This document shows, one piece after another, positions 9,481 through 12,051 of a DNA stretch of 64,000 nucleotides. The notes under the pieces are model-generated. The model had not been told where the DNA came from. It saw only the letters and a program-made list of their open reading frames with translations, and did no database searches. Numbering within the stretch: the stretch's first letter is position 1; each line of letters starts with the position of its first letter. Source of the DNA: Torpedo marmorata (lineage: Eukaryota); contig OZ360226.1 in NCBI GenBank assembly GCA_977017645.1, positions 133,300,001 through 133,364,000 of the forward strand. The letters are read 5' to 3'. The position numbers and the translations under genes are program-made.

Positions 9481-10297
9481 AGAACTTGGCTTGGAGCAAG
9501 GAACAGCCTTCACCAGAGGTGTTGGTTGTTGATATAACGGAGGAATTTAGGGACCCTGAGATGGCACAAGCTGACTCTTGTGAGGGTCACTTCAAACTAA
9601 ACATTGTCCCGGTTCATCTGTCTAATTCGGATATTTTGCAGAATTTGGATGCTAAGTTGGCTCATCTTCAGCCCCAGGAAAAGGAACAAATGAAACAGCT
9701 ACTTTTAAAAAAAATTTAGGAACTTGTTTCCAGATGTGCCTAAGAGAACCCCAATAGTTTGTCATGATGTTGGAGATGCCAACCATATCAAACAACATCC
9801 CTATCAAATGAATGTGGAAAAGAGTAAACTGGTAGATCAAGAAATTGAATATATGTTAAAGAATAATATTATTAGACGTTCTACCTCAGATTTGAGTTCA
9901 CCTTGTGTCCTGGTGCCAAAATCAGAAAGGATGGTTAGATTTTGCACTGATTATAGGAAAGTTAGCGCGGTAACAAAGACAGATGCTTATCCTATCCCTA
10001 GGGTGGATGATTGTGTGGACAAGGTTGGAAAGGCTAAGTTTCTTACAAAGATGGACTTATTAAAAGGTTACTGGTGTGTTCCCTTAACAGAGAAAGGTGG
10101 GGAAATTTCTGTGTTTGTGACCTCGTCAGGATTATATGAATATAATGTTTTGCCATTTGGAATGAAGAATGCTCCAGGGACATTCCAAAGAATGATTAAT
10201 TCTGTAACTCAAGGTTTAGAGCAGTCATTCCCAAAGTGGGCGGTGCTGCCTCCCTGGGGCGATGAAAAGATCCAAGGGGGCGGTGAGGAATAAGGGG

Positions 10298-10525
10298 GCG
10301 CGCCACGACATAGCCCTTGGCCACCAGTGCCTTGAGGGCAGCCAGCGAGAGGTCGCGCCACTCCTTGGCGGCCGCCGCTGCCGACAGGACGCGATCGGTC
10401 ACCGTGGGGCCTTCCGCTCCCTTGCAGCTCCGCTGCTGCTGCCTCTTGCTCCTGGTCGCCTTGTCTGCTCCGCTGCCCCCTCCGCCGGGTTCGCCGACTT
10501 CTTCAGCCCTGGGGTTCTCAGCCAT
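10298..10525 (-). pseudogene. Captured 5' fragment of a linker histone H1-like gene (N-terminal tail plus first half of the globular domain)
   Basis: ORF 10196..10525 reads MAENPRAEE...GPTVTDRVLSAAAAAKEWRDLSLAALKALVAKGYVV, compared with the canonical H1 [37 protein letters not shown]; Kozak context GCCATGG. Confidence 0.8.
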
Positions 10526-10613
10526 GGCGAGTCCCCCTCTCTGTCTGTCTCATCCTCGCTCTTCACACTGCCACAGCCAAAAGCGGTGGGAACTGGAGGA
10601 GCAAGTGAGCCCC

Positions 10614-10700
10614 TTTATACCCGGGAAGCGGATGGAAAGGAGAAACCCTTCCACCACCCCACCCTCGCACCTTGGCCACCCAACTCATTTTGTGTTTCTC
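10614..10700 (-). promoter_or_regulatory. Histone H1-type promoter: H1 box, GT/GC box, TATA
   Basis: Minus strand shows GAGAAACACA (10700-10691), GGGTGGGGTGG (about 10664-10654) and TATAAA (10619-10614), with the TATA about 90 bp upstream of the H1-like ATG. Confidence 0.65.
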
Positions 10701-12051
10701 ACCTCTGCTAAACCCCCGGAACGCCGGCAAACTCGCCCTCCCCGACCCACCAAACCCGCTGCATGCCTACCCGTCGACTGCAGAGCATTGGAATCCCCCG
10801 GCATCTCCACCCGCATTTGCCCGAACTCGCCCCAATCTCCGTCTAGTTCCAAAAACTCTTCAGGCGCATTAACATTTTACCCATTCCTTGGCAGAAATTG
10901 GGCATTGAACTCGATGCTTGTGAAATACATATGCTTGTATATAGTGTTAGATTAGTTGTTGTTTTAAATTTGCAGTGACCTAATACCAAGAAAGAGGTGT
11001 GTGTTTGTTGTGTGTGTGCGGGGTGGGGGGGGGGGGGGGTGGGGCGCTAGGGATGTGGCCTGGCAGCCCGAAAAAGTTTGGGAACCACTGGTTTAAAGCA
11101 TATGGATGCTTATATTGATGATTTGGTTACAGGGAATGACACATGGGAAGCACATATCTCTGAGTTAGAGAAATTATTCAACAAACTTTCAAAAACAAAC
11201 CTTACTGTGAATTTAGCGAAAAGTGAATTTGGCCATGCTACTGTGACTTATCTTGGTTACGTTGTTGGTCAGGGCAAGTTGGCGTCTGTTCAGGCGAAAG
11301 TTCAGACGATTTCTGAGTTTCCCATACCCACGGGTAAGAAAGCTATTAGGAGGTTTTTGGGAATGGTTTGGTATTACAGAAAGTTCTGTAAAATTTTTTG
11401 CTGATATAGCCCTTCCTTTGACAAACCTTTTGAAGAAGGGTGAAAAGTTTGTTTGGACAGAACTTTGTCAGGAGGCACTTGATAAACGGAAAGCCATTTT
11501 ATGTCACCAACCTGTGCTTAAGCCACCTGACTTTGAGAAGCCATTTTCTTTAGCAGTAGATGCTAGTGATGAAGCTGCAGGAGCAGTGCTTTTACAAAGG
11601 AATGGTTGTGATGGTATTGGCCATCCAGTGGCTTACTTCTCCAAGAAATTCAATAAACATCAAAAGAATTATTCTACTATAGAGAAAGAATTATTGGCCC
11701 TTGTACTGGCTTTGCACCATTTCGAGGTTTACATTTGCACAGCTCAGGGACCACTTGTTGTGTATACTGATCATAATCTCTTTGTGTTCTTGAGTAAAAT
11801 GAAAAACAAAAATATACGATTGTTAAACTGGAGTTTAATTCTACAGGAATATGATTTAATGATAACTCATATTAAGGGCAAGGATAATGTAATTGCTGAT
11901 TGCCTTTCAAGATGTTAAGTTTGCAACGTTACTGAAAAATGTTATATTTGTCTGTATAATCTCTTGTAAATAGTGAGTATTATTTCAATCATTGTAGTTT
12001 GCAGTTAAAATTTTGCTCTTACAGCTCAAAATTTTCTTTGTTGGTGGGAGG

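Follow-up and report, generated by a model that had tools for sequence, protein, structure and literature searches.

RESULTS

A Buster-type hAT element carries the first part of a histone H1 gene

Positions 10222 to 11090 of the window (the whole 64,000-nucleotide stretch of Torpedo marmorata DNA analyzed here) form a non-autonomous Buster-type hAT transposon with histone H1 cargo. The reading that we favor, with a probability of roughly 85%, is that about 620 bp of H1-variant DNA became the interior of a Buster-type hAT in a single repair-type capture, that the product spread in a burst to some 65 sites, and that the cargo is likely inert. The cargo-bearing copies ("packs") have one chimeric structure, hold a DNA-level capture, were mobilized with new target site duplications (TSDs), stem from a cargo-free parent family, and have decayed. 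The parts of the element and its surroundings, in window coordinates, are as follows.

9709-11401, plus strand: decayed reverse transcriptase of Gypsy type, cut in two by the insertion (RVT_1 at 9709-10221 and 11099-11401)
10214-10221, no strand: left TSD copy, gtttagag (7/8 against 11091-11098)
10222-10300, plus strand: hAT 5' end, with a terminal inverted repeat (TIR) at 10222-10237 and subterminal CCGCCCCC-type repeats (88.6% identical to the 5' end of family member L113; identical end in cargo-free siblings)
10297-10300, minus strand: point where the H1 CDS meets the hAT 5' end; donor and hAT share a 4-nt microhomology here, CGCC (donor, cargo-free siblings, and cargo copies compared)
10298-10525, minus strand: first 76 codons of an Arg-rich H1-variant CDS, captured (from the ATG through the N-terminal tail into the winged-helix domain)
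10526-10917, minus strand: captured H1 5' UTR and proximal promoter, about 390 bp (by alignment to the donor upstream region)
10614-10619, minus strand: TATA box (TATAAA), exact in 39/50 ungapped copies
10691-10697, minus strand: H1/AC box (AAACACA), exact in 49/53 ungapped copies
10918-11090, plus strand: hAT 3' end, with a (CA)n/poly-C tract and TIR at 11075-11090 (90% identical to L113 positions 2786-2952)
11091-11098, no strand: right TSD copy, gtttaaag (7/8 against the left copy)

The description of the element in the original prediction as a non-autonomous hAT bounded by TIRs and TSDs is borne out: the left TIR, CAGTCATTCCCAAAGT, agrees with the reverse complement of 11075-11090, CAGTGGTTCCCAAACT, at 13 of 16 positions, and the TSD copies agree at 7 of 8. 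The insertion point in the Gypsy reverse transcriptase is immediately before the YIDD motif. About 80 bp of the hAT 5' end and 173 bp of its 3' end are retained; the cargo between them (10297-10917, minus strand) comprises promoter, 5' UTR, and the first 76 codons, is oriented antisense to the lost transposase, and has a GC content of 62%, against 41% across the window. Side-by-side comparison of copies placed a blunt junction between cargo and hAT 3' end at 10917/10918. The predicted ATG in a GCCATGG context and the peptide quoted for it are present, with the ATG at 10525 on the minus strand. Of the abrupt end that had been proposed at the subterminal repeats, one part stands and the other does not: the H1 match ends there, but the frame has no stop at the junction and continues from 10525 through the subterminal repeats and TIR to a stop at 109 aa. 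This 109-aa read-through peptide, searched against 1.8 billion protein representatives, had 7 matches; six were full H1-like proteins aligned over residues 1-76 only, with no hAT-derived tail, and the seventh was low-complexity.

The cargo comes from an H1 variant with nine donor-type genes in the same genome

An intact H1 gene in the same genome can be aligned with 621 bp of the cargo DNA (474 of 629 columns, gaps included), and this DNA identity settles its origin, in agreement with the earlier claim that a divergent H1 variant had been captured. At the protein level, phmmer matched the fragment to the H1 globular domain 1ghc (E=7e-5). The Pfam Linker_histone scan that had been proposed as a check found 0 families, with or without the read-through tail; as a refutation of H1 origin, this null was rejected, since it is outweighed by the direct DNA match to the donor. 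The "5' half" of H1 in the original prediction needs correction: the captured CDS breaks off inside the winged-helix domain after 76 of the 188 codons, about 40% of the coding sequence, and promoter and UTR, a non-coding portion that was overlooked, account for over half of the cargo.

Donor genes were sought through a Linker_histone search of the same genome (6.2 Gb), which gave 110 matches; among 30 loci and 20 further stretches compared, one H1 subfamily aligned to the element over about 620 bp. A search with the C-terminal part of the donor gene found nine donor-type loci, one of them frameshifted, about 88% identical to the cargo at aligned sites. The proposed comparison with a full-length parental H1 could thus be made, and shows one blunt junction and one with 4-nt microhomology. 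A donor example, L054, encodes 188 aa (15% Arg; Linker_histone E=3.7e-15), and the histone stem-loop is present in both donors scanned with Rfam, L054 among them. The nearest named relatives of L054 are shark/ray H1-like proteins; the protein closest to the pack peptide is from Narcine bancroftii (63%). The captured piece starts 363 bp above the donor ATG and includes the AC box and TATA box; the donor TG box lies at -488, 125 bp past the break, and is absent from the captured piece. Neither a complete winged-helix domain with C-terminal tail (the H1 match ends as above, with no Pfam match) nor a 3' stem-loop with full promoter is present: no Histone3 stem-loop was found at L001, and the TG box lies outside.

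Around the donor, divergent H1-like genes and short genes rich in Arg/Lys are clustered (loci L118, L074, L079, L067 (G000:C80 9.667-9.742 Mb), and L036-L066); histone stem-loops are present in this cluster, and several subfamilies recur on unplaced contigs. A pattern search of the donor-cluster stretches read gave no core histone genes, and we infer that this may be a sperm basic-protein cluster. The C-terminal tail of L054 has two GRP (AT-hook-like) motifs, at residues 158 and 170, the last retained in most shark/ray relatives. About 550 bp downstream of the donor stem-loop is a 5S rRNA-like sequence barely above the Rfam cut-off (L054:506-621 and L055:492-607), which may be a gene, a pseudogene, or a SINE derived from 5S. 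In a ray orthologue, P0128, an annotated 172-aa N-terminal extension aligns to the donor promoter region read in frame; the annotation therefore likely reads through the promoter.

The cargo has been mobilized to about 65 sites

Junction patterns tolerating up to 3 mismatches gave 60 matches for the left junction and 48 for the right, and reversed-pattern controls gave 0; 44 matches were shared, marking 64 distinct loci on 30 contigs, with a Lincoln-Petersen estimate of 65. We fetched and examined 61 copies (4 of the 64 junction-defined copies fall outside the fetched set), of which 47 have both TIRs and 36 of these a TSD of at least 7/8. Among these 36 there are 31 different TSDs, with a central TA. 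Because the junctions are common to the copies and the TSDs differ, we read the family as one capture followed by one transposition burst. The suggestion that the element had spread its H1 cargo through the genome therefore holds up, as does a count of copies that share the cargo and differ in flanks and TSDs; with 64 distinct cargo-bearing loci, this is a mobilized capture and not a one-off secondary insertion. A multicopy Pack-TIR is defined by 100 to 5,000 bp of non-TE host DNA between the ends of one TIR element, an unlinked parental copy, and several copies with distinct TSDs, whereas transcription or chimeric RNA, known from a portion of the published cases, is no requirement; the torpedo family has 621 bp of such DNA, nine donor-type genes, and the TSDs just described.

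The carrier belongs to a much larger cargo-free hAT family

The cargo-bearing form, at about 65 copies, is a minor derivative of a much larger cargo-free hAT family. Candidates on first look numbered 1,515 to 2,540 for the hAT family, against 74 for the cargo only; a figure of thousands of packs was rejected, as the 2,540 first-search candidates are mostly cargo-free relatives. Among 29 loci chosen by the 173-bp non-H1 end alone, a cargo-blind sample biased to ends resembling the window's, 27 were without cargo. These relatives are either deletion derivatives, which in some cases hold GC-rich minisatellites, or longer copies whose transposase has decayed. A near-full-length copy, L113, spans 2,952 bp with both TIRs and a decayed transposase; both pack ends are 89-90% identical to it, its 5' TIR differing at a few bases. 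Seven siblings (L085, L092, L100, L102, L103, L105, and L108) form a cargo-free subfamily that has, unlike L113, a roughly 60-bp segment and a GC-rich minisatellite, possibly a second, unrelated capture.

By similarity alone, the parent transposase is assigned to the Buster group. A transposase piece in L084 has ZBED8-, SCAND3-, and ZMYM6-like proteins as its named relatives, and identity between the parent transposase and this group is 45-92% among the matches listed; Pfam Dimer_Tnp_hAT gave E=0.005, below the cut-off. ZBED8, SCAND3, and ZMYM6 are domesticated Buster-family hATs. The TSDs agree with a Buster assignment, being 8 bp long with an nnnTAnnn preference: of the 36, 35 have T at position 4 and 33 have A at position 5. 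The same consensus is given for TcBuster targets in PMC3499496. The transposase piece (L084:1755-2741, minus strand) is also 78% identical to a protein of the amphipod Hyalella azteca and 82% identical to a cluster that includes a protein of the prawn Macrobrachium, a similarity that suggests horizontal transfer of the hAT between crustaceans and the torpedo lineage.

The cargo decays like neutral DNA

Median divergence among the copies is 3.7% at non-CpG sites and 13.9% at CpG sites; the high CpG value points to methylation after insertion. The tryptophan that replaces arginine in the encoded peptide had been ascribed to CpG decay of CGG, and the corresponding codon in 50 copies (CGG in 28, CAG in 8, TGG in 3) bears this out. 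The ATG is retained in 34/52 copies and lost in 18/52, and both ATG and frame are intact in 12/47. CpG transitions are about as frequent at synonymous as at non-synonymous sites (13.2% versus 12.1%; p=0.40). A crude omega-like ratio was 0.85 over the CDS (p=0.04) and 0.75 in the globular part (p=0.005); after control for CpG sites and shared variants, the non-CpG ratio was 0.83 (p=0.19), with no deficit of non-synonymous changes against expectation. Purifying selection on the cargo was rejected on this ground, the substitution signal being gone after the controls. In-frame indels make up 23/62 in the CDS versus 8/67 in the promoter (p=0.001 in a crude test), and 11 of the 17 distinct in-frame CDS indels fall within triplet repeats. 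Conservation of the AC box exceeds that of 96% of 235 CpG-free cargo 7-mers (one post hoc test), whereas that of the TATA box does not. A group of copies with a GTG start is linked to a frameshift (p=0.003), which suggests that a broken master copy also spread.

The cargo decays like neutral DNA. We found no sign that functional H1 is made from the spread copies, which are likely silent passengers without function.

Packs and donors form separate groups

The alignment comprised 57 of the 61 fetched copies, the other 4 being set aside for their large secondary insertions; a tree was built from 50 packs and 9 donors (midpoint root, bootstrap not fully settled). A 100/100 split divides packs from donors, and the pack group is star-like, its end branches being near 0.057. 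Donors are 0-2% apart from one another and 11-12% from the packs' column majority. Some N-tail residues and a segment of the promoter are common to packs and ray orthologues, the promoter being compared only via the annotated upstream translation of the ray orthologue; today's donors lack both features, so most of the distance between packs and donors likely arose on the donor side, or else the source was a lost paralogue. None of the nine donor-type genes stands out as the exact source copy.

Proposed origin and alternatives

The cargo extends upstream past the TATA box, so the capture took place at the DNA level, most likely as a single event. The 4-nt microhomology at one junction and the blunt join at the other point to repair-type template switching, which may have occurred during repair of a break inside a hAT copy; a gap-filling/FoSTeST route is the type proposed for such captures in PMC8277862. 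As both ends were intact, the family transposase would have mobilized the chimera in trans, in one burst, and cargo-free deletion derivatives would have amplified alongside it. Inserted copies were likely methylated and then drifted, while the donor genes may have evolved on and been homogenized together, so that the packs would preserve older features of the gene.

An aberrant transposition could also have built the chimera, if hAT ends that had landed within an H1 paralogue or next to it took a piece of it along on excision, and that paralogue was later lost or left unassembled. The pack differs by 11-12% plus indels from all nine donor-type genes, so the true source is not in hand, and small unplaced contigs hold several of the donor copies. 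We nevertheless regard this route as improbable: 15 loci around H1-variant genes hold no trace of hAT, and the junctions lie about 80 and 170 bp inside the hAT ends, where cargo-free siblings continue, which fits replacement of an interior. A third set of routes (an H1 retrocopy landing in a hAT, an independent gain of H1 by each copy, or segmental duplication) we hold to be exceedingly improbable. H1 genes are intronless, and for a retrocopy intron loss would be uninformative; the cargo, however, is a 5' part with about 300 bp upstream of the TATA box, no poly(A), and no inner TSD, and independent gain or duplication is at odds with junctions identical in all copies whose flanks and TSDs differ. 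Promoter content and distinct TSDs thus led us to reject all three.

A different question is whether some copies are alive. The roughly 65 H1 core promoters point outward over the 5' TIR, and AC box, TATA box, and ATG could recruit the H1 machinery in some of them, giving chimeric transcripts and short H1-tail peptides, or small RNAs directed onto the Arg-rich, possibly germline, donor H1 cluster. The AC box is exact in 49/53 copies and the TATA box in 39/50, the 12 copies with ATG and frame read 81-189 aa into TIR and flank, and the CpG transition rate is nominally lowest in the core promoter (8.6%, versus 11.5-15% in most other parts). H1 box motifs have a role in H1 transcription and coincide with CRAMP1 binding in human cells (PMC12240685), and there are precedents in promoter-carrying bat Helitrons (PMC4224331) and in siRNA cross-talk in maize (10.1101/777037). 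Against this stand the absent non-synonymous deficit after controls, a start codon gone in 18/52, the suggested spread of a broken GTG-start master, an upstream TG box left out of the capture, CpG decay that points to germline methylation, and a peptide without helix 3, wing, or C-terminal tail. Such activity appears unlikely, and we retain the reading of a single repair-type capture, one burst, and a probably inert cargo.

DISCUSSION

In the torpedo, parent transposon, donor gene, both breakpoints, and copy burst can all be read in one genome. At least 60 replicate copies of one H1 promoter in varied settings offer a test bed for H1 promoter elements outside their cluster, and a fast-changing elasmobranch H1 variant is preserved in the packs in an older form. 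The copies are likely silent, and in that case their interest lies in evolution and not in function. The literature searched holds no report of this hAT-H1 pack family, which may be catalogued in Repbase or Dfam, and gave no source for the sequences of the AC and TG boxes.

Like Buster hATs such as TcBuster and the ZBED8/SCAND3/ZMYM6 group, the torpedo element has an 8-bp TSD with central TA, short imperfect TIRs, and a related transposase; whereas the interior of MITE-like Buster derivatives is a deletion product, here it is a host gene antisense to the lost transposase. Plant Pack-MULEs and Pack-TYPE elements likewise carry a gene fragment between TIRs and are amplified in trans; they belong to another superfamily and kingdom, and the torpedo pack shows one donor only. 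Among vertebrates, bat Helitrons such as HelibatN3, with the NUBPL promoter, are also DNA transposons that have scattered the promoter, 5' UTR, and beginning of the coding part of a host gene; they are rolling-circle elements with hundreds to thousands of copies (PMC4224331), whereas the torpedo pack is a cut-and-paste element with about 65.

Close counterparts are the animal Pack-TIRs of Tan et al. 2021 (PMC8277862), who counted 370 in 100 animal genomes, with four multicopy families; multicopy TIR gene capture in animals has accordingly been thought rare and small. Pack-hAT-N8_XT of Xenopus tropicalis and Ssk-FB4 of Drosophila similarly combine hAT-superfamily TIRs with a piece of host gene, and the multicopy cases share with ours distinct TSDs on several chromosomes, GC-rich cargo, and junction microhomology. 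For Ssk-FB4 a protein-level function was demonstrated, of which the torpedo pack gives no sign, and a cargo of histone promoter and CDS start sets the torpedo pack apart from the multicopy Pack-TIRs described there. The survey reports no Pack-TIR for the elephant shark, its sole "shark" row; its filters call for 90% identity and a unique top hit, and at about 88% identity to a multicopy donor the torpedo pack would fail them. Surveys requiring a close, unique donor thus miss older, larger Pack-TIRs. The two frog multicopy cases described comprise three and five transpositions (PMC8277862), against about 65 copies here, making the torpedo family about ten to twenty times larger than published multicopy animal Pack-TIRs (3-5 copies): an unusually large multicopy animal Pack-hAT with an H1-variant promoter that is real, well resolved, and likely functionless.
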